Positions 22,423 through 54,558 of a stretch of 64,000 nt of DNA are shown here, piece by piece (position 1 is the stretch's first letter; each line of letters opens with the position of its first letter). The translations under genes were made by a program, and so were the position numbers. Below the pieces are notes generated by a model that made no database searches, had not been told where the DNA came from, and saw only the letters and a program-made list of their open reading frames with translations. This stretch comes from Albugo candida (lineage: Eukaryota): the NCBI GenBank assembly GCA_040437565.1, contig JBDOQK010000073.1, positions 62,001 to 126,000 of the forward strand, in the 5' to 3' direction.

Positions 22423-22692
22423 TTGCAAAAGCTCAAGCGCGCTTATTTCGCCTGGATATGTGGATGAAATGGAACTGATTGGTCACACTAAGATGTTTCT
22501 CAGTCATCGTTACGAAGAGTCACAGCATTACAAGCTTTCATTCGCAATCACTGTACTGAGAATGAAAAGTTTCTAAGGCAACAGGCGCAAAAATTCAAGT
22601 CGTGAACGCTTTACACTTGCTCTAGATAGAACCCGAATTTCTGTACTATTTTTGACGGTGATTTAGCGACAACATTTGATCCCGCGTCTATT

Positions 22693-25208
22693 ATGAGTCA
22701 AGCCGATTCGCTTGAGATCATTCATCTTGGACGAGGTGGTCTGATTGTGCAAACATCCATTGGCCCGATTCAGTTTGGAATGCCACCGGAAACAATCAAA
22801 GACTCGATGAAGCTTGGCATTTCTGTCCCGCGGCATTACATCGTACCTTCAGAACCATTCACCAAAACAATAGGCGCAAATATGGGCGTAAATGTAGCTG
22901 AATTCGAGTTCCCAGCCTATTGCAATTTTTTCTTTAAAGGACAAAGTATCAATCTGATCGTCCCCTCCAAAGACGTGGAAGATCGCATCCGAACGGTATT
23001 TCAAGAAACTTTGTTTGGACCAGTGAAATTAGATCTCGAGCAGGATTTTCCTCCTTCAACGCCGAAAGAATTGTATCCTGACTTGCATAAAGAGCTAGAG
23101 TACTTTCGAAAGTTTGGTGACACGCTTATCACGCTCGATAAGCTGATACAGTTTACCACTTTCAATGACGCCGGCGAGGCTTGGATCACAAAAGATAATC
23201 TACAAGTTTGTATCGAGAGTAAAAATGGCTCGTTCTGTATCATCGACAAAGATAAGACAGCAGTATTCCCAGACAGGATGAATTTACCTCTTCCTTCTAT
23301 CCCGCAAGCAAGCTTGAAATCCTTCTATCCGCCACAATTTGGTGTCACGGTACTAGGCAATTCGCATGGATTTGATCCTGATGGGAAAACTTCTGGCTAC
23401 GTGCTGTGGATTAATCATCGTGGGATTATGATTGACCCACCACCTTGCTCTTCTTCCATTCTTCAAGTCAACAATATGCCTGCATTGATGATTGATGGTG
23501 TGATTCTAACACACTGCCACGCAGATCACGACGCAGGTACATTCCAGAAAATTTTACAGGAAGGAAGAGTGTCGCTCATCACAACGCCAACAATTTACCA
23601 GTCCTTTTTACGAAAGTATTTGGCTTTATCTGGCTTCAAAAAGGATTTTCTAAAACGAGTTTTGGACTTCAGACGTGTTCGCATCAATGATCCCATCACA
23701 ATTCGCGGCGCTGAATTTCGCTTCTTCTACACTTTACACTCTATTCCATGTGTCGGATTTGAAGTAAGGTATGGCAATAAACGAATTGTGTTTTCTGGAG
23801 ATCATCTAAATGACGTCGAGCGTATCAAGATGCTACATGACAATGATATTATCTCTGCATTGCGTTACCAGGAACTCGTCAATTTCCCGTGGCATTGTGA
23901 CTTGATCCTTCACGAAGCTGGGGTTCCTCCCATTCATACTCCGCTAAAGACGTTAATGAGTCTGGATCAAGACATTCGTGATCGTCTCTACGTCGTGCAT
24001 ACAGCTGGCAAAGACTTGTCAGCTAGTTGCGGTCTCCGAGCTGCACCTGAAGGTGTGGAAAATACGATTGTGGTCGAAACAAATGCTCCAGAACATGCGG
24101 GTGCACTTGAAATTCTTGATCTTGTGCGGAAAATCGATCTTTTCAACGAATTGAGTTTTGGTCACGCGTACGAGATTCTTCAAATGGCAAAGAGAAAGAC
24201 GTACGAAAAAGACGTTTGTATCAAACAAGAAGGAGATATTGGGGATACATTTTATATAATTATTGTCGGAAATGCCCAAGTATTCTTTACGGAAAAAAAG
24301 AGCCGACCAATTGGACAAGGAAAGCACGATATTCCAATGCGTTCAGAGCAGCATGAAGCGGATTCTACAGATTATTCGCTAGCTAGTACGGCTGCAACTC
24401 CTCTTGCGCCATTCTCGAAGACATTCCGACCTGGCGAGTACTTTGACCTACAGACACTCTTGACTCCCGGCTGGATTTTGCCGTATCGTGCCATCGCGAA
24501 ATATAAAGTTTCCATGCTGGAATTCAATGCCGCAGAATTCAATTGGTTCCTGCAAAAAACTGCGGCCTTTGGACGCATGAAAAAACTCATACAAGCGAGG
24601 GCGCATTCCTCGTATACTTTATTGCAATCAAATCGAGTCTTTTGCAAATTCACAGCTACACAGCGTACCAGATTCGAAATCTTATTGGTTCAAAAAGAAG
24701 TTGGTAAAGATCAAGTACTTTGGAATGCGGGAGATATATGCACCTGCGCTTATATCATTGACAAGGGGCAATTCCGATTGAGAATGATGCCAACGCATAC
24801 GAATGAAACGGTGCTTGCTCGATCGCATACGCGGCGAACGTCTTGCTTCGCTTCAAGCGAGAACAGTTTGCATAAAAGTGGCGATTTTCTTGCATGCAAA
24901 AATGAAAGGAGAAATAGCGCTTCAAATGGGGTACGTGCATTTGGTCTGTTCATTCCAGCTGCATCTAACATGTATTGATATAGAGCGCATATGACTCAGC
25001 AGAAAGCGGAGAGAAGATTCTGACGCACGGCAATTTTGTCGGTGACGTGGATAAAATCATGTCGACAGTCATCACGTTCCAAACCAGTGAGCTCACAGCA
25101 GAGTCAAAAGGGACAGTCTTTACTATCCAGAAAGATGACTTGATAACTTTTTTGACGGAAAATCCAGGGATTCTCATGCGTCTGAGTGGTACGATACTAG
25201 TGACGTAA
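22693..25208 (+). CDS. Metallo-beta-lactamase-fold plus two cNMP-binding domains; putative cyclic nucleotide phosphodiesterase (intron 24931-24983)
   Basis: THCHADHDAG (HxHxDH), HSIPCVGF, FSGDH, HEAG and VVH motifs. Two cNMP domains (EGDIGDTFYIIIVG; AGDICTCAYIIDKG). Exon 2 (24984-25208) is 75 codons in frame, with branch point CTAAC. Confidence 0.85.
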
Positions 25209-30769: not shown

Positions 30770-32770
30770 TCAATCAACCCACGATGTCATCAGTTTAGCT
30801 ACTTGTCCCGCTTCTTGTTCAGCTGAGAGTGCGGATAGCTGGTAGCAAACTTGGAGGAAATGAAGCTTCAAGTGGATTTGACCCTTACGCTTCAATAAAA
30901 TTCCCAAATCTCTTTCGATTTCGATCGGATCTTCCAAACTCAGCGCTTCCTCTCTCCATCTAGCGCCCGAACGGTTCCAGCTCTTCGCTTTCTTTGACAA
31001 TATTGATGAGAATCGCAAGGAAACCACCCAATCATTCCAATTGAATTCAAAGCAATAATAATGGAAGAATTCCATCAACAGAATCAGAGTTTCTTTCCGG
31101 CTGTTATTGTTTCTCCAACGAAATGCGTTGTGCGCTCCAGCTTGTATGTCAATATTCTCGTGAATAGATTCAAAATCGACACTGAGTGGATTTGAAGCAA
31201 ATGCAGTTTCCTGCTGCTGATATTGCTCATGCAAATCGATCTTGGGTACACTTCCTGGATACTTTTGTTGGAAGAAGAACAGTATGAGTAATTGTAAGCC
31301 GTACGAGCTCAGCTCTGAGATGAATGCGTTCTTTCTCCGTTTGAGTTGCTTCATCCAGCAGCGAACCCATAATGAAACTATGTAAACGTAATTTTCGGCA
31401 ATAAGTGAATGCTCTTCTCCTTGACCGATCCAATAAGATATGAGTTTTGTGTTCCATAATGCTGCGATGTTATTGATACAGATATCAATCTGTTGGTTCC
31501 GATCGTCGTACTCAATGCAAAGACGAGCTATTGGAATTCGAGCATTTGTAATGACAGAAAACCTGACTGATTTCGACTTAGAAAAGAGGCTCTGTGTCGA
31601 TACAATCGACTCCAAGTGATCCTTGAGCTTGTGCACAAGGCTTGCTGAGGCTTTGCGAAATACGGTCGATTGGGACGATAGAATCACAACCAAATCCAGG
31701 TCGGTTGTCTCGCTTTCTATTATTAATTTGGTTGCAGCTGAGCCAAAAAGATAAACCGATGCATCAGACCACAATAGCTGAATGCTTCGCTCGACCTCCC
31801 GTCGAATTTTTTCGTTTTGTATCTCATTTTGACATGCGCCTTGCAGGATTCTCTCACTAGCGTCATTGAAAGAGGTCTCCACGGTCTGGTCCTCACGTAC
31901 AGCTTGCATTTTTTGACTCATCTGACTTTGTATGCCGCTTTTTCTGTATCCATTGAGCAGAACTGGGAATTTCGATAGCTCTGTGGGCTGGAGATAGTAT
32001 GCAAAAGAGCATCGTTGCAGCTCGACGCTCGCGTTCCAAAGGAGACGACACGCAGTTTCCATCTCGGGGACCTTCTCCTTACGTTTCCTAGCGCCATCTT
32101 CATTGCCATATAAATGATATAACCAGTACCGTATGATTCTTTGAAAGCACAATTCAGGAGTCAGGAGCTCGTGTATATTATATTCAAGTATAAATTTCGC
32201 AATACAAAGCGGCTTCACAATTAATAATGCATCATCCGACCCATGTTCGTTATCTGATTCGGATAGTACAGGTGATAACGCGACTTTTAGAAATTCATCG
32301 CCTGTTAGATGCAATCGTTTGGCGTAATGTGCGGCCGCTTTCGGGTTTCTATTTTTTACACCTTTCTCCTTCAATAAAATTTCTCGGATCATTACTATTT
32401 TTGCAGTCGAATCGTTCAAGCGCTTTGTAATTGTTTGCGCGATATCCCACGCATTACTCGTTTCCAAAGACGCAGTCTGAAGAAAATGCTTGAATGAATC
32501 GATGGTTCTTATATCATCAGGCGATAATTCGTTCCCATCTTTATCTCGCACAATGGATGAGGAACATGCAAGCGCTTTTCGTTCAGACTTTGTTTTTCGT
32601 CTTCCTTTGGAATGTGTTCGCTTTCGTTTAGAGCTGCTTCCTAATGCCATTTGTGTGGTATCCACCATTGGCAATTCTATGTGGTACACGTCGACTTCTG
32701 CTTGAAGTCCCGCAGTTCGAAGTTGGGCGCTTGGTTTTATCAGATGCGAATTGAAACGATATGCATTCAT
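30770..32770 (-). CDS. Non-canonical poly(A) polymerase / terminal uridylyltransferase (Cid1/Trf4/GLD-2-like)
   Basis: Pol-beta NTase motif LFGS...TDLDLVV, ARIPI, IDICINN, NTKLI, LSSYGLQLL and PAP-associated FFHYY..EFNW, LEDPIE. The first ATG is at 32770; the real start could be further downstream. Confidence 0.88.
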   Translation of the reverse strand: MNAYRFNSHLIKPSAQLRTAGLQAEVDVYHIELPMVDTTQMALGSSSKRKRTHSKGRRKTKSERKALACSSSIVRDKDGNELSPDDIRTIDSFKHFLQTASLETSNAWDIAQTITKRLNDSTAKIVMIREILLKEKGVKNRNPKAAAHYAKRLHLTGDEFLKVALSPVLSESDNEHGSDDALLIVKPLCIAKFILEYNIHELLTPELCFQRIIRYWLYHLYGNEDGARKRKEKVPEMETACRLLWNASVELQRCSFAYYLQPTELSKFPVLLNGYRKSGIQSQMSQKMQAVREDQTVETSFNDASERILQGACQNEIQNEKIRREVERSIQLLWSDASVYLFGSAATKLIIESETTDLDLVVILSSQSTVFRKASASLVHKLKDHLESIVSTQSLFSKSKSVRFSVITNARIPIARLCIEYDDRNQQIDICINNIAALWNTKLISYWIGQGEEHSLIAENYVYIVSLWVRCWMKQLKRRKNAFISELSSYGLQLLILFFFQQKYPGSVPKIDLHEQYQQQETAFASNPLSVDFESIHENIDIQAGAHNAFRWRNNNSRKETLILLMEFFHYYCFEFNWNDWVVSLRFSSILSKKAKSWNRSGARWREEALSLEDPIEIERDLGILLKRKGQIHLKLHFLQVCYQLSALSAEQEAGQVAKLMTSWVD

Positions 32771-35433
32771 TCCGTCAGGGTGCGGGATTGACAATCAGCT
32801 TCTTCGTCTCGGTAAATCGATTCATCTCCCATCAAATGCTGCGCAACGAATAAACTCGCATCGCGATTTGTCCAATAAATGACATGCGCTGTTAATGCGA
32901 ATAGATACTCATTGGTGATTTCGATTTCATTTTCCTGCAACGTGTAATCGATAGGAAGACCATCTGAGAGGCGTCCATATACGCTGATTGGCGATTTCTT
33001 CCGACAAGAATCTGACTTTACTGCGTTGTCTGCGACATTATCGAATAGACCACCACCGTTACCTACACTATATGCATTATTACACGTTTCCGAACCGGAA
33101 TGCGTTCGAGACTGAAATTCGCCCAATTCATTCTGTTCCACAAGACCGACATTCTGCACAATGTCTTCGACCTGAGCCTCAAAAGTTCGTTTCCACTGTC
33201 GTAATTTCTGATAAATTTTCCGCAGTGTTTTCCGAATTTGATACTGAAACCGGAGTTTACCTTCAAACGTATGAATGATGGTCGCTTTGGATTGAGCTTG
33301 AGATGACGTAATGATCGGTTCTAGACGATACGCCACCGGATCGTATGGATGGAAAATATTAAATACGCGACGACAAGTTGGAAGCTGAAAGTCCAAACCG
33401 AGCCGGAGACCACGGACGTTCAGGAAAAGACCGATAGGAGATCCAAGGCAGAACAAATGGTCCACTTTGAATAAGAGTTGCACAACAGGAGTGTTTGTAG
33501 TGGTAATTGAAGCTTTGGATGGTGCTAATTTGCAAGAAGGAACGGATCGCGTGCGTATGAGGCGGTTGGCAATGGCTGACTGGAATCGATCTAGCTGGAA
33601 TGGAGCAAAGCTCTCATTCCGACCGATTGGCTTGGCTGAAGTACGTGCTTCAATATCGACCGGCTGTGGATTTTGATAAGATAACAGATCAAATGAGATC
33701 ACAGCGCCAAGAGAATGTGCATAAATTGAGACTTTTCTTGTCCGACAGGGTGCATCCAGTTTTCTACGATTTCTTGCTTGGAATAACTGATAAACCCGAT
33801 TCATTTCATTGGCCACATGTTCTAATATCGTCTGATGGAAAACTGGAGACATGAAGAAAAGAACGTCTAAAATGGTATCATTCGCCAGCTCTCTCAAGCG
33901 TGGAATGGCTGGTAGCGTGACATCACGTATACTCTGGTCGAGCTGATCAATATGCAATTTAGAGTGCCACTCGATTGGAAGAAATTCCACATGTGTTTGC
34001 GTCTTATTCGAATCAAAATGAGTAGACCGTAACGCTTCTCGATGGAGAAAACGTAAGCTCGTGGCACAATCGACAATACTGCGCAAAGTGACAACGTTCA
34101 TCAGATCAATTGTCTTAAGAGCATCACCGATACCATGAATGATGAATACGAGATGGTCAACCTCGTGCTCAATATCAGCATCATCCTCATGGATCTGTCG
34201 TACATCCATCGACATAGCAGATCGCCATTTACGTAGCAGCACTGGGTCCATCTTAGTTCGTGGATCACCTCGATAAACACGCCGCTTGCTCGTGAATGGT
34301 GTCGTTCCCGCTAGCCGACGCTTATACTGAAAAATGTCATTCGGAGTTTTGAATTCCACCAAATGATTTTCAATTGGAACCTTCAGGTGACATTGTGTAT
34401 TTTTTATTGCCCTCCTTCCCTCATGTCGTGTTTTGATTTTTTCTTGTTCGTAGTTGGTGAGATAGAATAGAAACGCATTTTCCAGTGTGTTCGAAGCAGT
34501 TTTGTAGTAAGGAGCAATGCCGGCACTTCTTCTTGTGTACATCCAAAATGCTCGATGGACAGTAATCTTTTCAAGTGAATCCCAGTAGACAGATCTCATC
34601 GTCATTGTATCAAGACAGACTTCGAATCGACCTTCATCAACGGCGACGTACCGGGAAGGCGAAGGAAGGACCCCGAGCATATCATGTTGATGGAATTGAC
34701 GATAATGGCGTTCCAGTCTGCGATTTTCGTGAGGCATGAACTCGATCCAGTCAATGCATTCGGTCTGCAGCTCAATACTGGTTCCGTTCATTGGTAATTT
34801 GCAGTAAAACCAGCATGGAATATCATCAGCGTTGGGCTTCAACGGGCAATCTTTTGCTTCAAGCACGACGTCTGCTAAATGTACATGGGATTGCAATAAA
34901 TCCATATATAATGTCTCATTTTGTAATTTGATAGAAAGTAGAAACTCATATAACTTATATGGTGAGTGCTGCAAGTGCTGACATCTTTTATAAATGCTTT
35001 TCAGCACTTCATGGCGTCGATCTTCTGATAAGGATGCATACGGCCCTCTTCCTAGAATGTTCCATTGTACCATACTCCAGTGATGATCCAGTACTTGGGT
35101 CGCCGAGTAGAAATACTCCAAAATCGCTCGTATTTGCGTGGTACTCATATCCAACAGGACATCGGTCCTACTTTCAATTTCTTCGCGTGATGGGAAAACA
35201 CATAAAGTAGGACCAATCACAGCAAAGTGTAGAATCCCTTCCATGGCTCCAAGCGGTGGCCCAATCAGCTTTTTTAAGATCCAATGACGCAGCAACTGGT
35301 TTTTGGCAACAAAATATATTTCGGGTAATTCGTCACTTGCTATGAATTGTGCAACTCCTTCGATAGTATTGAGCAGAGGAAGTGCCACATGCGTGCGAAG
35401 TGGTGATATTGCCGTTGGTATCGGCGCAGTTTC
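32450..35433. repeat. Gap-flank duplicate of 35534-38517 (assembly overlap; produces a second DDHD copy at 32767-35433)
   Basis: Apparently identical, offset 3084, adjacent to gap 35434-35533. Confidence 0.9.
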
Positions 35434-35850
35434 NNNNNNNNNNNNNNNNNNNNNNNNNNNNNNNNNNNNNNNNNNNNNNNNNNNNNNNNNNNNNNNNNNN
35501 NNNNNNNNNNNNNNNNNNNNNNNNNNNNNNNNNCGCATTACTCGTTTCCAAAGACGCAGTCTGAAGAAAATGCTTGAATGAATCGATGGTTCTTATATCA
35601 TCAGGCGATAATTCGTTCCCATCTTTATCTCGCACAATGGATGAGGAACATGCAAGCGCTTTTCGTTCAGACTTTGTTTTTCGTCTTCCTTTGGAATGTG
35701 TTCGCTTTCGTTTAGAGCTGCTTCCTAATGCCATTTGTGTGGTATCCACCATTGGCAATTCTATGTGGTACACGTCGACTTCTGCTTGAAGTCCCGCAGT
35801 TCGAAGTTGGGCGCTTGGTTTTATCAGATGCGAATTGAAACGATATGCAT

Positions 35851-38811
35851 TCATTCCGTCAGGGTGCGGGATTGACAATCAGCTTCTTCGTCTCGGTAAA
35901 TCGATTCATCTCCCATCAAATGCTGCGCAACGAATAAACTCGCATCGCGATTTGTCCAATAAATGACATGCGCTGTTAATGCGAATAGATACTCATTGGT
36001 GATTTCGATTTCATTTTCCTGCAACGTGTAATCGATAGGAAGACCATCTGAGAGGCGTCCATATACGCTGATTGGCGATTTCTTCCGACAAGAATCTGAC
36101 TTTACTGCGTTGTCTGCGACATTATCGAATAGACCACCACCGTTACCTACACTATATGCATTATTACACGTTTCCGAACCGGAATGCGTTCGAGACTGAA
36201 ATTCGCCCAATTCATTCTGTTCCACAAGACCGACATTCTGCACAATGTCTTCGACCTGAGCCTCAAAAGTTCGTTTCCACTGTCGTAATTTCTGATAAAT
36301 TTTCCGCAGTGTTTTCCGAATTTGATACTGAAACCGGAGTTTACCTTCAAACGTATGAATGATGGTCGCTTTGGATTGAGCTTGAGATGACGTAATGATC
36401 GGTTCTAGACGATACGCCACCGGATCGTATGGATGGAAAATATTAAATACGCGACGACAAGTTGGAAGCTGAAAGTCCAAACCGAGCCGGAGACCACGGA
36501 CGTTCAGGAAAAGACCGATAGGAGATCCAAGGCAGAACAAATGGTCCACTTTGAATAAGAGTTGCACAACAGGAGTGTTTGTAGTGGTAATTGAAGCTTT
36601 GGATGGTGCTAATTTGCAAGAAGGAACGGATCGCGTGCGTATGAGGCGGTTGGCAATGGCTGACTGGAATCGATCTAGCTGGAATGGAGCAAAGCTCTCA
36701 TTCCGACCGATTGGCTTGGCTGAAGTACGTGCTTCAATATCGACCGGCTGTGGATTTTGATAAGATAACAGATCAAATGAGATCACAGCGCCAAGAGAAT
36801 GTGCATAAATTGAGACTTTTCTTGTCCGACAGGGTGCATCCAGTTTTCTACGATTTCTTGCTTGGAATAACTGATAAACCCGATTCATTTCATTGGCCAC
36901 ATGTTCTAATATCGTCTGATGGAAAACTGGAGACATGAAGAAAAGAACGTCTAAAATGGTATCATTCGCCAGCTCTCTCAAGCGTGGAATGGCTGGTAGC
37001 GTGACATCACGTATACTCTGGTCGAGCTGATCAATATGCAATTTAGAGTGCCACTCGATTGGAAGAAATTCCACATGTGTTTGCGTCTTATTCGAATCAA
37101 AATGAGTAGACCGTAACGCTTCTCGATGGAGAAAACGTAAGCTCGTGGCACAATCGACAATACTGCGCAAAGTGACAACGTTCATCAGATCAATTGTCTT
37201 AAGAGCATCACCGATACCATGAATGATGAATACGAGATGGTCAACCTCGTGCTCAATATCAGCATCATCCTCATGGATCTGTCGTACATCCATCGACATA
37301 GCAGATCGCCATTTACGTAGCAGCACTGGGTCCATCTTAGTTCGTGGATCACCTCGATAAACACGCCGCTTGCTCGTGAATGGTGTCGTTCCCGCTAGCC
37401 GACGCTTATACTGAAAAATGTCATTCGGAGTTTTGAATTCCACCAAATGATTTTCAATTGGAACCTTCAGGTGACATTGTGTATTTTTTATTGCCCTCCT
37501 TCCCTCATGTCGTGTTTTGATTTTTTCTTGTTCGTAGTTGGTGAGATAGAATAGAAACGCATTTTCCAGTGTGTTCGAAGCAGTTTTGTAGTAAGGAGCA
37601 ATGCCGGCACTTCTTCTTGTGTACATCCAAAATGCTCGATGGACAGTAATCTTTTCAAGTGAATCCCAGTAGACAGATCTCATCGTCATTGTATCAAGAC
37701 AGACTTCGAATCGACCTTCATCAACGGCGACGTACCGGGAAGGCGAAGGAAGGACCCCGAGCATATCATGTTGATGGAATTGACGATAATGGCGTTCCAG
37801 TCTGCGATTTTCGTGAGGCATGAACTCGATCCAGTCAATGCATTCGGTCTGCAGCTCAATACTGGTTCCGTTCATTGGTAATTTGCAGTAAAACCAGCAT
37901 GGAATATCATCAGCGTTGGGCTTCAACGGGCAATCTTTTGCTTCAAGCACGACGTCTGCTAAATGTACATGGGATTGCAATAAATCCATATATAATGTCT
38001 CATTTTGTAATTTGATAGAAAGTAGAAACTCATATAACTTATATGGTGAGTGCTGCAAGTGCTGACATCTTTTATAAATGCTTTTCAGCACTTCATGGCG
38101 TCGATCTTCTGATAAGGATGCATACGGCCCTCTTCCTAGAATGTTCCATTGTACCATACTCCAGTGATGATCCAGTACTTGGGTCGCCGAGTAGAAATAC
38201 TCCAAAATCGCTCGTATTTGCGTGGTACTCATATCCAACAGGACATCGGTCCTACTTTCAATTTCTTCGCGTGATGGGAAAACACATAAAGTAGGACCAA
38301 TCACAGCAAAGTGTAGAATCCCTTCCATGGCTCCAAGCGGTGGCCCAATCAGCTTTTTTAAGATCCAATGACGCAGCAACTGGTTTTTGGCAACAAAATA
38401 TATTTCGGGTAATTCGTCACTTGCTATGAATTGTGCAACTCCTTCGATAGTATTGAGCAGAGGAAGTGCCACATGCGTGCGAAGTGGTGATATTGCCGTT
38501 GGTATCGGCGCAGTTTCAACCTCCTTTTTAAGCACACAAAATGTCCTCTGACCAGTTTTCACTATGCATATACGATACTGGTACACTTTAATTTGTGTGG
38601 AAATAGCGACTTCTGCGAGTTGATCACGCGTATCAATGATAAGTCGTTTCAATACATCGGGAGCTTTTCTTTGCATGGTTTTGACGATCTGACCACTCAG
38701 CGCATACAGAAATGGGAAGGGGGTATAGATCGACAACGTCGTACCGCCCTTGCTATAACGCTCATGCATATCATGCTGAGCATCTCGAATAATCTCCGCG
38801 ACATGATACAT
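35851..38811 (-). CDS. DDHD-domain intracellular phospholipase A1 (PA-PLA1/SEC23IP family)
   Basis: HLVFIIHGIG, VEFLPIEWH, lipase motif AHSLG, LGSPIGLFL, NIFHPYDPVAYRLEP and AHVIYW. WWE-like region upstream. Confidence 0.92.
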   Translation of the reverse strand: MYHVAEIIRDAQHDMHERYSKGGTTLSIYTPFPFLYALSGQIVKTMQRKAPDVLKRLIIDTRDQLAEVAISTQIKVYQYRICIVKTGQRTFCVLKKEVETAPIPTAISPLRTHVALPLLNTIEGVAQFIASDELPEIYFVAKNQLLRHWILKKLIGPPLGAMEGILHFAVIGPTLCVFPSREEIESRTDVLLDMSTTQIRAILEYFYSATQVLDHHWSMVQWNILGRGPYASLSEDRRHEVLKSIYKRCQHLQHSPYKLYEFLLSIKLQNETLYMDLLQSHVHLADVVLEAKDCPLKPNADDIPCWFYCKLPMNGTSIELQTECIDWIEFMPHENRRLERHYRQFHQHDMLGVLPSPSRYVAVDEGRFEVCLDTMTMRSVYWDSLEKITVHRAFWMYTRRSAGIAPYYKTASNTLENAFLFYLTNYEQEKIKTRHEGRRAIKNTQCHLKVPIENHLVEFKTPNDIFQYKRRLAGTTPFTSKRRVYRGDPRTKMDPVLLRKWRSAMSMDVRQIHEDDADIEHEVDHLVFIIHGIGDALKTIDLMNVVTLRSIVDCATSLRFLHREALRSTHFDSNKTQTHVEFLPIEWHSKLHIDQLDQSIRDVTLPAIPRLRELANDTILDVLFFMSPVFHQTILEHVANEMNRVYQLFQARNRRKLDAPCRTRKVSIYAHSLGAVISFDLLSYQNPQPVDIEARTSAKPIGRNESFAPFQLDRFQSAIANRLIRTRSVPSCKLAPSKASITTTNTPVVQLLFKVDHLFCLGSPIGLFLNVRGLRLGLDFQLPTCRRVFNIFHPYDPVAYRLEPIITSSQAQSKATIIHTFEGKLRFQYQIRKTLRKIYQKLRQWKRTFEAQVEDIVQNVGLVEQNELGEFQSRTHSGSETCNNAYSVGNGGGLFDNVADNAVKSDSCRKKSPISVYGRLSDGLPIDYTLQENEIEITNEYLFALTAHVIYWTNRDASLFVAQHLMGDESIYRDEEADCQSRTLTE

Positions 38812-38832
38812 CGGACTTGTTGCGGTTAGCTA

Positions 38833-46622: not shown

Positions 46623-47450
46623 TCAAAATGCGTATTCTGCTGGCGAGGGCGTCTGGGAGACCGCTGCGGGTGAAGTTTTGCCGCTATTTATTTCAGCAGC
46701 TCGCTTGATCGGCTTTCGAACGATCTCCACTTCTGTACATTTGTGTTCTGATCCATTCGTATCCTGTTTCTTCTCTTCAAGTTCCGCATCAAGCAATCTC
46801 TTTTCCCGCTCCAATCGCTCTTTCTCACGTGCTTCTCTCTTTTGTTGTCGCTGCATATCCAACAATGCTTCTTGTTGCTTTCGATCATCCGGAGCTGAAT
46901 GACATTCACTTTGTGCGGCAATACTGTGCCGCTTCATATCACTGCCTTTAGGTTCCGACTCTACGGTGTACCGAATGTCGCCCGTTGAACGGCGCCCATG
47001 AATATTGTGACTCGAGAAGTTTTGAAAATTTCGAATCACGGGCGGGCTGTTCTGGGAAAAGGTATCGGGCAACACTTGATCTAACGACATTCCACTATTG
47101 ATTCGAAAAGCTAATAGAAATTTATCCACCCAATTATTCATCTCCATTTCAGTGCTGGCAGCCACTAGAAGACGCCGTTCAGCAGCATTTATCGCAACGC
47201 GCCAAATAGTCGAAGCCGAACTTCCTGTTTTCATACTGTCCGCTGGCATAATTTCTAGTGCTGTCTCGTCACACGACGAAATATCCAGTTCACCTTTGAG
47301 TTCTCCATCTTCAAATGTGTAATAACTTAGCGTGTGTGGCCTCAAAACAAAATATCGTGGTTTCCAATTCTTCCTTCCAAATGGTCCATGTCCTGAACCT
47401 TTCTTGAATAACACTCCTTTGCGCAACACTTGATCCGTCGACGCTTTCAT
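46623..47450 (-). CDS. PH domain protein
   Basis: KGVLFKKGSG..FGRKNWKPRYFVL...EMNNWV, followed by a charged coiled-coil tail. Confidence 0.88.
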   Translation of the reverse strand: MKASTDQVLRKGVLFKKGSGHGPFGRKNWKPRYFVLRPHTLSYYTFEDGELKGELDISSCDETALEIMPADSMKTGSSASTIWRVAINAAERRLLVAASTEMEMNNWVDKFLLAFRINSGMSLDQVLPDTFSQNSPPVIRNFQNFSSHNIHGRRSTGDIRYTVESEPKGSDMKRHSIAAQSECHSAPDDRKQQEALLDMQRQQKREAREKERLEREKRLLDAELEEKKQDTNGSEHKCTEVEIVRKPIKRAAEINSGKTSPAAVSQTPSPAEYAF

Positions 47451-47588
47451 AAGTCTAAATTCTGTGGAATACTCTGATTTTCTATTCTTCGTTACTGTGA
47501 AACCTTTCTGAGATCAAATGTACCCGTACCTAACAAACGTACTTACTATACGCATATCGCCACGTATTGCCTCTTGAAGGATATCCAT

Positions 47589-49385
47589 TCATACAGTACC
47601 TGCAGCTAGCGGGTAACTGTCAACGTCGTCGGACAAATCGCCACGACGAAGTCTTCCCAGGCCGTTCAAAGCCGCAACACGATACGCTTCAGCAAGGGTC
47701 GGATAATTGAAGACGGCATCCCGAAAGTACGTTAATGTGGCACCCATAGCGATGGCAACTTGGCCAATATGAATAATTTCAGTGGCGCCTTCGCCGATCG
47801 CATGAACACCGAAGAGTTTTAGCGAATGAGGATCAAATAAGATTTTTAGCATTCCATCGGCACTGGCACCACTCATCTGACCTTTTGCCAGCTCTGAATA
47901 CTTAGCCACACCAATTTCATAATTGATCTGTTGAGATGTCAATTGTTTTTCTGTATGTCCCACCATTGAAATTTCCGGAATCGTATAAATTCCGTATGGA
48001 AAATTACCAGTTTTTAATTGTGACGGGATACTGTCATCGTTGGATTCATCCTCATTCCACATGTAACATGATGCTAAACGACCCTGCTCCATACTCGTAG
48101 AAGCTAATGAGGGCGCACCGATGCAGTCACCCACGGCAAAACTGGAAGCCCGTCAGTATATAATGGACAAATGCAGTGTCAACGTACATATGGGGCTTCT
48201 TGGTCTGATACTTTGTATTCACGCTCAAAAGGCCACGCGGATTACGCGATAAACCAGCCGCTTCCAAGTTCAGGCCGTCCGTATTAGCTTGACGTCCAAC
48301 AACATATAGAAGCGCGTCTCCATGAACTTTCTTACCGCTTTTTAAACCAACCAAAACGCCTCGAGATGATTTCTATAGTAAAAGTAAGTAAGTGTGAGTG
48401 GTAATCAATCAGAATCAATCGAGAAATCGAGATCTCTTACGTCGACAGATTCGATCGTTTCACCCAATAGGAATCGCGCACCGTGATTACGCATTTCGTG
48501 CGTAAGCGTACTAATGATTTCATCGTCGCAAAAGCTCAGAATCTAGATTCCAAATTGTTCGTGGGATATACTGGCAAATATCGACTCGAATAGACGGGTA
48601 CCTCTTCACGTCCATCAATCACTGTGACGGAATGTCCTCGTATCACATTCAGCATGGATGCATACTCCATTCCAATTACACCAGCACCTACTACAATAAG
48701 CGATCGTGGAAGTTGCCGGATATTCCAAGATAGTATTTGATCGCTGTCGAAAATCACTTTTCCATCGATTGGAATATTGGGATTGTGTGCAGGTCGTGTG
48801 CCACACGCAACGAGAAATTTTGAAGCGCGCAAACGTTTTGTTATTTTTTCGTGAGCGGGTCCATCAGCCTCAATAATAGAAACTTGGTGATCGTCTTCGA
48901 AGCGAGCGTGGCCAGATATATAGTCGACGCGAGCAGATTTGAATTGAACACGGAGGAGATCGACTTCGGATTGGATGACGCGGTTGACGCGATATAAAAT
49001 ATCATCGATAGTCACGTTTTTCATAGAGTATGACTTTCCATAGAAGCTAAGCGGGTATACAAAATCAGAATTTATGTGTAATAGAAAGAATTGTGATGCC
49101 TCCCTACCCGTGGTGGCGATACCCTGAAAGATGTAATACTGCTTCACGAAAGGTTTTGGATGGGATAGTACCTGTATGCACGCATACACCTCCAACAGAT
49201 GATTTTTTATCAATGATCGCGACGTGTTTTCCACGTTTTGCTGCGTCGAGGGCACAGTTCGTTGCGGACGGTCCACTACCGATGACAATTAGATCATAGG
49301 ATACTATACTGCTGCTATTTCGTTTAAGTAAATAATTGCGTTCAAAACGAAGAGCGGTATCGAAATTTCGTATGATTCGATGCAT
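47589..49385 (-). CDS. sthA: Soluble pyridine nucleotide transhydrogenase, bacterial SthA/UdhA type (4 introns)
   Basis: Introns 49047-49107, 48543-48601, 48373-48440 and 48142-48187 splice in frame. Motifs [23 protein letters not shown] (only one Cys, unlike the CxxxxC of disulfide reductases), [20 protein letters not shown] and [18 protein letters not shown]. Confidence 0.9.
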
Positions 49386-51283
49386 CGGTTCATACGAATT
49401 CGAAAACTCGTTTGGGGGTATTTGATTGGTTTAAATACTCTGCTTCCAACCGAACATGGTGTAACAACCCATCAAGTCAGGCTCAGATCTGGGTTCGCTG
49501 ATTCGTCGCAAAGACGCTTGAATAGCATCGCAATGATGAATCACAAGGAATTGGTTAGATACAAACACTTACTTGGCAGATTCAATATGACTGCTTTTTA
49601 TAAAATTTAACATTTCTGAATATATTTTCTCAAGCTCATTGTATTCGAATTTGAACTTGTGATTTTTTATCGTCAGAAGCTTATATTTCCCCCCCCCCGA
49701 TGTTTACATTCTATTTGTCATCTGAGTGAAGTTTTACCATAATGATAGCTTCCGATCCAGGTGACGCTCTCACCTTTTTTCAGGTAGGTCAATTTGACGC
49801 CACAATCCTGACGCGGTATTCTGTGTGCTGTAGGTGTTCCAGAGAGCGTTCAAGTGCAAAGAAGGCGAGTCTGAAGACTCGGTTTACCGACATTGCTGCC
49901 TGAATGAATTCATCATATGCCATTGCGCCTTAAAAGTACCAGTCCTGTCCGGATTTTTCAGCTCGTTCGTCTCCTAAATCTGGTTCGCTTGGCACAACGT
50001 TTCCATGCCACAACCTCAACGCCACCAACATCAGACCGGTATCAAACAAAAAGCACACTCAGCACCGGGCTGCATTTAAGAGTCGAAGAAAAAGTCCACT
50101 ACAAGGGCACAAGCATATTTGCATTTCTGGTCCGCCAAGGCATCGACAAATATGTCTACCTTTATCATTAGCGCCTCATATCGAGCGAACTAACGTCTTG
50201 GGAGCGGCCTCGATTTAGCAGGAGCAATCAAGTACACTCACGTTATTGGCAGCTTGAAGGAAGATATAGACACCGAGCTTTTTGGAGTTAGAGTACGATT
50301 ATATTTGGCAATATACATCATTCATATACATACTTAAGACATACATATCTTATTGCCGTGTACCCTTGTTTGTTAACTATCATGTTGCTTTAATCACATC
50401 CCATCGACACTATCAATCTATGAATATACACTGACTATGTATGACGGACCTCTAACAGGAACGCCATGCCATACCGCACGCGTACGCCCGCTACCGCTAT
50501 TTTTGGATTTCACGGTACACCTTACCGCTATATCTAATAATAGCGCTTCCACCGCGTGAGTTGCATGAAATCAATGCGTACGCCTCATTCTGTGTGTCCT
50601 TTGTAGCCATTTACAGGTTTGCTCCAAGCTTTGTCCACCTTGTTTTCAACGAATATAATCAGCTGCATCAATTGATGTTGACGCACGGTCTATGTATCAA
50701 GACTTTCGCCTGCTTGTGTGTGAGTCGTGAAAACTTGCATGAATTCAGATGTTCGGCTGGAAGGTTGAATTCTGGCGTAAAGTACGCCTTTGGCACATAC
50801 TCCTCCGCTCTTAGCCCGCGCTCGAACGTGATACGAGCACGTTCAATTATCGGGAATCGGTTATTATAAGCAAACCTTCAACAATGAGAAGTTTATCTGT
50901 GACGGTCGGCCACGAAAACTTAAATTACAAGTGTGTTTGAAATACAGAGTGCGTCTAAACAGTCGTACCCATACGGAACCACAGTAATATTCGAAACCAA
51001 GTTCATACGCTCGTCGTAGAAAACTCCGCTGACGAAAACCTATTTCAAACACTTCCTACGCTGATTCGCTAATGGAGTAAAATTACGTCGTAATTTTCCA
51101 ATTTGTGCGCAATAAACACGAAATTCGTTGATCTTTGAAATCTCCCGTATGAAACCATTCGCCATTGTGAATGCCTTCGGGGCNNNNNNNNNNNNNNNNN
51201 NNNNNNNNNNNNNNNNNNNNNNNNNNNNNNNNNNNNNNNNNNNNNNNNNNNNNNNNNNNNNNNNNNNNNNNNNNNNNNNNNNN

Positions 51284-51842
51284 CAAGCTTTGTCCACCTT
51301 GTTTTCAACGAATATAATCAGCTGCATCAATTGATGTTGACGCACGGTCTATGTATCAAGACTTTCGCCTGCTTGTGTGTGAGTCGTGAAAACTTGCATG
51401 AATTCAGATGTTCGGCTGGAAGGTTGAATTCTGGCGTAAAGTACGCCTTTGGCACATACTCCTCCGCTCTTAGCCCGCGCTCGAACGTGATACGAGCACG
51501 TTCAATTATCGGGAATCGGTTATTATAAGCAAACCTTCAACAATGAGAAGTTTATCTGTGACGGTCGGCCACGAAAACTTAAATTACAAGTGTGTTTGAA
51601 ATACAGAGTGCGTCTAAACAGTCGTACCCATACGGAACCACAGTAATATTCGAAACCAAGTTCATACGCTCGTCGTAGAAAACTCCGCTGACGAAAACCT
51701 ATTTCAAACACTTCCTACGCTGATTCGCTAATGGAGTAAAATTACGTCGTAATTTTCCAATTTGTGCGCAATAAACACGAAATTCGTTGATCTTTGAAAT
51801 CTCCCGTATGAAACCATTCGCCATTGTGAATGCCTTCGGGGC
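51284..51842 (+). repeat. Gap-flank duplicate of 50625-51183 (assembly overlap)
   Basis: Apparently identical, offset 659, adjacent to gap 51184-51283. Confidence 0.9.
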
Positions 51843-52541
51843 GAGCAACGGTCTAAAAGAATTGATTAGAATGTTGAGTTAGACACTGCTCAATGATCTT
51901 GTACAGTAAATTCACGTTGAATGAGAGAATCGCTAATCGATCTGTCTTGGACGACATTAGCGTCTGAAAGCCCAATGCCGCTTATTCTTGGTTGAAAGTA
52001 TCCTACCTTAGCTCCTTATCCAGAGCGCATATATTCATTTCATACAAGACTATTAGAAACCTAGGGAGCAGCATCAGATAGAACAGATAGCACCAAAGCA
52101 ATACACAAAAAGAAAAACGAAGAGATAAAAAATTGTAGATTATGTAGATTATTCGCCGTCGCAAAACTTCAAGAGAAAGTGGGCAAATCATAATTCCTTG
52201 GTGATGTGAAAGTAGATATCCTTTCCATGAGTATCATCCATTGCCCCAAATACTGTTAAGTGGCGGTTGGCAAATAAGGAGCTGATAACCCAGTTAGACC
52301 CGACCTCTGCGGTTTTTGCATTACTGGTTTTATGTTTGTTCGTTCGTCCATTGTGGCTAGTGGTTTTGTGGACCTTAATGCCACGTAGCACCTCGTTTCG
52401 GACTCTGGTCGAGCCGTGATATAATCACGTTGTTTTAATTGGAGTTCGCTCATCCAAAAAAAAGAGGACACTCGGTGTCCGCGATCGCATTCAAATTCAA
52501 CAGGTCGAGACATTCTTGAACTGATGAAACGCGCTGAATGG

Positions 52542-54558
52542 CTATGTCAGTGCTTCTCGGAACGTTGACGCTTCTGAGTGGATATCCATTTGCTCGCAGC
52601 ACCCCGTACTCCGCCGAATTGCCAGCACGGAAGCCGGGTACCCGTTGAGCATGATGTCGCCTTGTATTTTACCACCGGTTTTACGTCCAGCAATCACATC
52701 CATCAATGTACTTTTGCCAGCACCCGAGGATCCCATCAACGCGGTCATTGTACGGGGCATTGCGTATCCTGAAATACCCTGCAGTAATGTAAGATCCTGT
52801 TTTGGAGCATTCAGGTCGGGGACCGAGTCATATAAATTCTTGAAACAAAGTGTCACGGGTACAAATGCTGCATCCTCGTGGCCGATTGGCAAACGGACCT
52901 CTTCTTGATTGTCCATTGGTGTATTCAGCGTGGTATAGCTGTCTTTTCGAGATTCATGAGTAGTATCCTCGTCATCGATCTCTCCATCGGAGCAGACGAG
53001 TAATCGTGAACGTCGACGCGTTGATACTCGAGCACGAAAATACTCGCAATTGTAAGCAGCACATACATTGCGCATGAGTATACAAATCCATACAAACTCC
53101 ATTTCTCATCCGTGTACACGTCAAAAAGCTCCAAATAGTATTTTCCAAACGTCGTACCAAATCGCTCACAGTAATTGATCCCTTCATACACATAAATATC
53201 GAGTGTGCTGTTACGGTACAGGTTGATTCCAAGCATACGGATGCACCAGGAAATCGGATTATTCCAATAAATCCATAAAAGATAATTGGGAATTTGTGAC
53301 CGGACAACGATGAACCCCGCATACAATGCAAAGAATAAGATGGAAAGCATCGCAAATGGATGAGCAATGTGGATATCGGACGANNNNNNNNNNNNNNNNN
53401 NNNNNNNNNNNNNNNNNNNNNNNNNNNNNNNNNNNNNNNNNNNNNNNNNNNNNNNNNNNNNNNNNNNNNNNNNNNNNNNNNNNCAATCATCACGAGGATG
53501 AAGAGCGCGAATGACGAGAATGCAGGTACCAGATCACAAAACCAGTACGCCATAGTTCCAAATACAAGCCCACGCAACACGATGGGTGTCATTTGTAGAA
53601 GCGTATTGGCAAATACGAAGCAGCTCGTTCGATGTGAGTTGGCGTCACGTTGTTTGTAAAATATGTCACGAGCCTCAATTAATGTTGGAATCATAGCCAC
53701 TTTCCCTAGCGCGATAAATATAGTCGATGCGAAAAAGACTCCAAGCTTAACTTGAATATTTGTTGACTCGATTTGGTAGAAAATGGTGCCGTATAAGAGC
53801 CCAGATATTATTATCANNNNNNNNNNNNNNNNNNNNNNNNNNNNNNNNNNNNNNNNNNNNNNNNNNNNNNNNNNNNNNNNNNNNNNNNNNNNNNNNNNNN
53901 NNNNNNNNNNNNNNNNCTATCGAGCCCCGTACTGATTTCATCCATGAATGTGACATTACGAAACCCAATTTCCATCTCTCCGCTTGTGACACGTTTACGT
54001 TCCCCACCGGAAACGCCGCGAAGCATTCCACTTCCGATTTTTGTATCCTTGCAATCTTGAAGCCCGTATGACTCAATTACAATACCAGGGTAGTGCTGAA
54101 TCATCGCGTTAGCGAGTCGGAGCGCGTCGACCGCATTTTCAGATGCAAATTTCTGCGGTTTTCGAGCTAAAGGTTAAGAAAAATATCTCGCAATGAGAAT
54201 TCCACGCAAATTCGAGCGTCTCCTTCACAGTTGCAGCAGTCAACTGGTGGTTGGCGACACCGTTATATGAAACTTCGCCTCGTATACTCACGTTTTTCTT
54301 ATGGTAAAACCGACCGCTGAGATATTTCAAAAGTGTGGATTTACCCGAAGCTGGTTGCCCTAGGACGAGTGTCATGGATCCTGATCGTAACACTCCAAAC
54401 AAGTCTTCTAACTTTTTGCATGCGTTTCTCGATAATTCTGACAGCATTTTGAGTGACACGCATCGCCGCATTTCCAAATGTCGGTATTTTCCCAGACTCA
54501 TCCTTTCCTCGCTCCATCGTGGCGGTAATTGTTATATTCCGAGAACGAACTTCCATTT
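52542..54558 (-). pseudogene. PDR/ABCG-type ABC transporter pseudogene
   Basis: NBD1 Walker A GQPASGKSTLL, signature [11 protein letters not shown], Walker [13 protein letters not shown] fragments (IFYKQRD, WIYWNNPISW), NBD2 GSSGAGKSTLMD and CEQMDIH. Pieces lie in different frames with deletions, and the ORF stops right after TFREALT. Two gaps fall inside. Confidence 0.85.

Follow-up and report, generated by a model that had tools for sequence, protein, structure and literature searches.

Does a eukaryotic genome encode a soluble transhydrogenase (STH) of its own, an enzyme described in print as bacterial only? The question is raised by a stretch of 64,000 nucleotides of the oomycete Albugo candida (GenBank assembly GCA_040437565.1, contig JBDOQK010000073.1, positions 62,001 to 126,000 of the forward strand; hereafter the window), in which an earlier note, made from the letters alone, had pointed to an SthA-like flavoprotein gene. 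We found that this gene is real, spliced and resident in the host genome, and that its predicted product is a member of the SthA/UdhA family (EC 1.6.1.1). It belongs to a eukaryotic, probably mitochondrial STH clade that is apparently undescribed and is not a peculiarity of one genome.

The gene spans exactly 49385 to 47589 on the minus strand, and its five exons and four introns yield a spliced frame of 520 amino acids with a single terminal stop (Table 1). Splicing was followed in contigs of four runs (X1, X4, X5 and X6), whose RNA nature is a guess. All four introns are precisely absent from contigs of X1 and X4, both from one study, and the joints coincide to the base with the predicted splice sites; X6, which comes from a different study, has a contig that lacks intron 3, and low-depth contigs of X5 are unspliced across introns 3 and 4. 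The earlier note had thus counted its GT-AG introns correctly, and the confirmation of junctions that it proposed came out in its favour, on that guess; only its description of the introns as in-frame has to be corrected, as none has a length that is a multiple of three and it is splicing that restores the frame. The start at 49385 is the first ATG downstream of an in-frame stop, and the annotated Albugo proteins P0122, P0123 and P0125 have the same start position. Around this codon (window 49376-49402) X1 and X4 carry seven differences from the window, one of which gives residue 4 the change seen in P0123; none affects the ATG.

The note had also argued from the introns against bacterial contamination, and the surroundings of the gene agree. 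Its neighbours are eukaryotic (PH, FKBP, eIF3, DDHD, PX and ankyrin), its G+C content at third codon positions is 0.39 (0.41-0.43 in four other open reading frames, ORFs), and its last exon matches a protein of Albugo candida at 99% identity, with named oomycetes making up 29 of the 30 best matches. Bacterial-length proteins do account for 38 of the 120 matches listed in a profile search and for most of those in another listing. Contamination, or a recent transfer into Albugo alone, is nevertheless refuted by the spliced introns, the neighbours, the host-like composition and the oomycete matches, and we give it practically no chance.

Table 1. Features of the SthA-like gene and the ORF downstream of it (window coordinates).
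Feature	Position	Strand	Remarks
Exon 1	49108..49385	-	Start codon, N-terminal extension, FAD-binding motif, single-Cys motif; NF003585 is best match
Exon 2	48602..49046	-	Remainder of FAD domain, beginning of pyridine-nucleotide domain
Exon 3	48441..48542	-	
Exon 4	48188..48372	-	
Exon 5	47589..48141	-	Interface domain and stop codon
Intron 1	49047..49107	-	61 nt, GT-AG, phase 2; skipped in X1, X4
Intron 2	48543..48601	-	59 nt, GT-AG, phase 0; skipped in X1, X4
Intron 3	48373..48440	-	68 nt, GT-AG, phase 0; skipped in X1, X4, X6
Intron 4	48142..48187	-	46 nt, GT-AG, phase 2; matches intron 3 of paralogue B in phase and alignment column
Arg-rich extension before FAD motif (29 residues)	49299..49385	-	First 25 residues: 5 Arg, 1 Lys, 2 acidic
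CxxxxT motif, Cys68..Thr73	49167..49184	-	CxxxxC in disulphide reductases; pattern shared with annotated E. coli SthA; the genome's own DLD differs
Clade signature, Met224..Gly230	48635..48655	-	One residue more than bacterial SthA rows
C-terminal 10-residue motif, YPT..E	47682..47711	-	Tyr at the position of the DLD catalytic His; as in annotated E. coli SthA
PH-domain ORF	46623..47513	-	First ATG 47450; downstream of the SthA gene

The family assignment had to be separated from dihydrolipoamide dehydrogenase (DLD), which has the same fold class and domain order. The SthA model NF003585 (cut-off 465) scored 575.3 with P0123 (the model annotated for this gene in A. candida, to which a tail is fused) and 574.8 with P0125, the A. 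laibachii orthologue, whereas near-identical Albugo proteins failed the DLD model TIGR01350 (323.2 and 320.5; cut-off 408.8). All 31 proteins scored in this way (29 eukaryote-type and two bacterial) were above the NF003585 cut-off and none was above that for DLD, and NF003585 was the best match of each of the four exon-containing frames scored. The best PDB match by sequence was the SthA filament 9N4Y; in a fold search with the model of P0125 (96% identical), chains of 9N4Y held ranks 1 to 10 (E 1e-52) and DLD came at rank 11 (2e-49). The genome has its own DLD elsewhere, with the CxxxxC and HPT..E motifs, and it is only 28% identical to the window protein. A DLD identity was ruled out by the failed cut-off and by the lack of both the redox disulphide and the catalytic His; the grouping with DLD that the earlier note had named as a refutation did not occur, and in a DLD-rooted tree the protein is nested among SthA proteins. 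It is 42% identical to the annotated SthA of E. coli and 51-54% identical to proteins of Acidobacteriota and Gemmatimonadota. What it has in common with bacterial SthA/UdhA is thus the family cut-off, the fold and the CxxxxT and YPT..E motifs, while it differs in its nuclear spliced structure, its presequence-like extension, a one-residue insert in the nucleotide domain, the loop of its flavin adenine dinucleotide (FAD) site and the existence of two paralogues.

The second copy, paralogue B, lies on contig C5 (L002:207-2052) and encodes 560 amino acids that are 55.5% identical to the window gene, hereafter paralogue A; its predicted gene model has three introns including one GC-AG, and the last of them shares its alignment column and phase with intron 4 of paralogue A. 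Both paralogues are present across Peronosporales, Pythiales and Saprolegniales. Two oomycete models of paralogue B, P0139 and P0152, have a long C-terminal tail, with EF-hand domains in P0139, and are likely gene-model fusions; the ORF listing of the Albugo genome had no such tail after paralogue B. Regulation of bacterial STH by Ca2+ has been reported.

The one-residue insert marks the clade to which both copies belong. It was present in 98 of 396 rows, and these 98 formed one clade with no extra row (support 0.991) in a tree for which 378 of 431 proteins had passed an 85% coverage filter and 20 rows had been added, leaving 396 after a length filter. The eukaryotic clade had a support of 99 (Shimodaira-Hasegawa-like approximate likelihood ratio test, SH-aLRT) in a quick tree of 85 rows, and of 100/99 in a careful tree of 44 rows, rooted on E. 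coli SthA, from which 41 of the 85 rows had been dropped, namely the DLD outgroup and rows that were near-duplicates or had long branches; the inner clade with all named members also had 100/99. Besides oomycetes, the named relatives are Chromosphaera, Amoebidium, Rhodelphis marinus, Ectocarpus, Ascophyllum, Chrysoparadoxa and two MMETSP transcripts; a protein tagged Clim is presumably from Creolimax, and a partial Heterosigma relative was kept outside the trees. As the trees place its members, the clade spans three eukaryotic supergroups and holds stramenopiles (oomycetes and ochrophytes), ichthyosporeans and Rhodelphis. Three word-seeded searches, in each of which 8,000 candidates were scored and the best 120 listed, returned no name of an animal, fungus, land plant or alveolate among the matches listed. 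With a profile built from 16 eukaryote-type proteins, 82 proteins of this type came before any of bacterial length among the 120 matches listed, a partly circular result. Outside the main eukaryotic clade, P0316 (Dermamoeba algensis; presequence-like start, long branch) and P0337 are divergent SthA-like proteins, possibly from a second acquisition or possibly long-branch members. Far from it lie P0338, P0342, P0364 and P0365, large proteins with two tandem Pyr_redox modules, three of them with EF-hands and two also with a histidine-phosphatase domain.

Where would the enzyme act? The Arg-rich extension that the earlier note had put at about 28 residues is present, with a length of 29. We classed an N-terminus as presequence-like if its extension had at least 18 residues and the first 25 contained at least two Arg and at most two acidic residues, with a net charge of at least +2. 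This rule was passed by 26 of 27 proteins of paralogue A, 15 of 16 of paralogue B and 73 of 91 of the whole clade, as well as by the genome's own DLD, used as a positive control; 56 of 465 internal windows passed its composition part. The median extension was 40 residues in the clade versus 5 in 229 other rows, of which 10 had an extension of at least 18. Sequence conservation is lacking in the extension, and in the model of the A. laibachii orthologue residues 1-24 have a predicted local distance difference test score below 50, both as expected of a presequence. By this composition rule, the presequence that had been called possible is probable, and the protein is probably located in the mitochondrial matrix.

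The rest of the draft genome gives this location a metabolic setting. The membrane transhydrogenase NNT/PntAB is unrelated to SthA and is driven by the proton gradient towards NADPH; the Albugo protein is predicted to have in common with it the net hydride exchange. In many eukaryotes NNT is mitochondrial, according to the available text of PMC7614955. We found no PNTB, PNTB_4TM or pntA match in the draft genome, nor PNTB or membrane domains at the Albugo locus, with controls positive in E. coli and others, and the sole AlaDh_PNT_N match in the genome was lysine-ketoglutarate reductase/saccharopine dehydrogenase. Table S1 of PMC7614955, in which isoform marks are not visible, has no oomycete or ichthyosporean genus among the holders of the membrane enzyme. 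The Iso_dh family is represented only by LeuB and one NADP-type isocitrate dehydrogenase (IDH; 709.8 versus a cut-off of 397.15), and neither NAD-IDH nor monomeric IDH was found in the draft. The NADP-IDH lies at L110:1343-2715 (contig C6), where a 62-nt GT-AG intron would join an upstream exon whose translation looks like an Arg-rich presequence. A Met after this intron could start a cytosolic form.

We consider it fairly probable that paralogue A is a soluble, energy-independent FAD transhydrogenase of the matrix, belonging to an old eukaryotic clade and working in the net direction from NADPH to NAD+. The Arg-rich extension would import the protein into the matrix. In the SthA family, FAD exchanges hydride only with pyridine nucleotides or small acceptors when the disulphide and the His are lacking, and E. 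coli UdhA passes surplus NADPH to NAD+. Lacking both, the Albugo protein is predicted to have no disulphide reductase activity and to move hydride between pyridine nucleotides via FAD. The net flux is expected to run towards NADH because the only IDH found is of the NADP type and apparently matrix-targeted, and because no proton-pumping transhydrogenase was found: the tricarboxylic acid (TCA) cycle would make NADPH in the matrix, the two soluble transhydrogenases would pass it to NAD+, and TCA-cycle NADPH would thereby be respired. The enzyme may in this way stand in for the membrane transhydrogenase apparently missing from the genome. According to the available text of PMC4518329, bacteria need STH under NADPH excess and its accepted role is the removal of that excess, with exceptions reported. 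The same enzyme could instead work mainly from NADH to NADP+ and, with NNT missing, be what supplies antioxidant defence with NADPH. PMC4518329, in what is available of it, describes the reaction as close to equilibrium and has cases where overexpressing STH increases NADPH-dependent yields, and the lack of NNT in the draft genome fits this direction. We think it unlikely, as without coupling the enzyme has no means of driving the NADPH ratio beyond that of NADH (same source and extent), and an NADP-IDH is apparently present in the matrix already. Quite unlikely, too, is that an SthA-derived flavoprotein has become an NAD(P)H diaphorase or quinone reductase: the equivalog cut-off is exceeded by 110 bits and both diagnostic motifs are kept, even if the FAD loop is altered, the literature searched held no assayed eukaryotic member, and the closest named bacterial relatives (53-54% identity) lie outside Gammaproteobacteria, the group that was studied as far as the available text of PMC4518329 goes, and to which E. 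coli, at 42%, belongs.

On its origin, the earlier note had proposed a horizontal or endosymbiotic acquisition, of which the ultimately bacterial source stands. The trees indicate that the eukaryotic clade descends from one old bacterial acquisition; a recent or lineage-restricted transfer does not agree with its span of three supergroups, nor with a duplication into A and B that is probably older than the oomycete radiation. That the gene arrived with the mitochondrial endosymbiont would suit the presence of sthA in Alphaproteobacteria and the mitochondrion-targeted look of the eukaryotic proteins, but we hold it to be improbable: a grouping of eukaryotes with Alphaproteobacteria was rejected by the approximately unbiased (AU) test (p-AU 0.0038, on only three alphaproteobacterial rows), and identity to these rows is 43-44% versus 51-54% to Acidobacteriota and Gemmatimonadota. 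The donor was thus probably non-alphaproteobacterial. A scan of genomes with the oomycete protein P0011 gave Streptomyces or Micromonospora for all of the best 80 of 552 relatives (48-52%), an effect of the seed patterns that is uninformative on the donor. How the gene spread is a matter independent of its function. A broad vertical distribution in eukaryotes had been named as a refutation of transfer, and the distribution is indeed wide, but it is patchy and is compatible both with ancient inheritance followed by loss and with transfer between eukaryotes. A later single acquisition followed by serial transfer, as against early inheritance with many losses, is a serious contender to which we give somewhat less than an even chance. 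It would account for the patchiness of the named holders, for the loose grouping of Rhodelphis with ichthyosporeans (85/87) and for the fact that paralogue A with ichthyosporeans was not rejected (p-AU 0.058), and an oomycete-ichthyosporean transfer has been argued for nitrate genes (bioRxiv 10.1101/454272, in its available part). Paralogue B, in contrast, groups with ochrophytes (99/95) as vertical descent predicts, the two paralogues have an intron position in common, and a deep sister group of five rows without names (98/80) points to a wider and older diversity. Monophyly of the oomycete copies A and B was rejected (p-AU 0.0028), so the two copies either predate the oomycete radiation or arrived separately. 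The three groupings submitted to the AU test (A with B, eukaryotes with Alphaproteobacteria, A with ichthyosporeans) were chosen after trees of the same data had been seen, which qualifies their p-values.

Several points weigh against a matrix transhydrogenase of an old eukaryotic clade that oxidises NADPH. The FAD loop reads GSGPSA, versus GxGxxG in bacterial rows. The presequence rule is a crude ad hoc composition filter, not TargetP or MitoFates, and among the members scored the Albugo protein counts as one of the more acidic; the first exon of the IDH, likewise, is a prediction from genomic sequence. The absences rest on one fragmented draft, whose 7,503 contigs were searched one exon at a time, and those in Table S1 of PMC7614955 may reflect sampling. 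Ectocarpus and Nannochloropsis are in that table yet also have an STH-labelled protein (for one of them, from the available part of PMC7554720), which rules out strict mutual exclusion of STH and NNT. Cases where STH aids NADPH supply are on record in the available text of PMC4518329. Many clade rows are without an organism name, and we infer their eukaryotic origin; a metagenome scan with one of them, P0241, found one weak locus, a 30% match. As to the donor, the sister group rich in Acidobacteriota and Gemmatimonadota has a moderate, not firm, support (90/66), and the bacterial sample leans to close matches from these two phyla.

Downstream of the SthA gene lies an ORF with a PH domain, which four A. 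candida gene models (P0001 and P0122-P0124) fuse to it. No splice joint between 47513 and 47600 was seen in any of the four runs, and we reject a fusion as the main product; X1, X4 and X6 read into or through this interval unspliced, and X4 has two separate contigs there, at depths of 12 and 280. In A. laibachii the two are annotated as separate proteins, and the named orthologues of other oomycetes, of 423-531 amino acids, are without a PH domain. A candidate donor site does overlap the final codons of the SthA frame, and one X1 contig covers both genes; together with the four fused models, this leaves a slim chance that the fusion is the real product, and a minor isoform of the fused kind may exist. 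The PH ORF is most likely a separate gene and the fused model probably an annotation artefact.

Elsewhere in the window, two tandem ORFs of 941 and 992 amino acids (32767-38829) each have a C-terminal DDHD domain, and an ORF at 22630-24978 combines metallo-beta-lactamase-fold and cyclic-nucleotide-binding domains. At 50456-51900 near-identical ORF translations (50668-50877, 51327-51536 and neighbours) flank a gap of N, either an assembly duplication or a tandem repeat. The region 52542-53916 is fragmented and gap-ridden, with a Walker A motif in translation and no Pfam match at 1e-8 for the one frame scanned; it resembles a PDR-type ABC transporter.

In the open literature searched, outside subscription journals and preprint supplements, we found no paper describing a eukaryotic STH. 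The available texts of PMC3322482, PMC2718500, PMC9292941 and PMC7050145 do not describe one, and that of the Ectocarpus paper has only a Gene Ontology term for B-specific transhydrogenase. The novelty is tempered by automatic UniRef names, which already label many oomycete orthologues as transhydrogenase. Even so, a presequence-bearing clade across three supergroups contradicts the bacterial-only picture. Tentatively, oomycete mitochondria might be the reverse of the animal redox design, with an NADP-only IDH, no proton-pumping transhydrogenase and two matrix STHs that pass NADPH to NAD+ and so to the respiratory chain, the family having entered eukaryotes once, very early and from a non-alphaproteobacterial donor, and surviving in stramenopiles, unicellular relatives of animals and Rhodelphis. 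The clade offers a testable answer to how NADPH and NADH are balanced in mitochondria without NNT, and metabolic models of oomycetes would need the enzyme. With no animal or land-plant member among the matches listed, it is also a candidate selective target for oomycete control, and it may be a source of natural organelle-targeted transhydrogenases for redox engineering.
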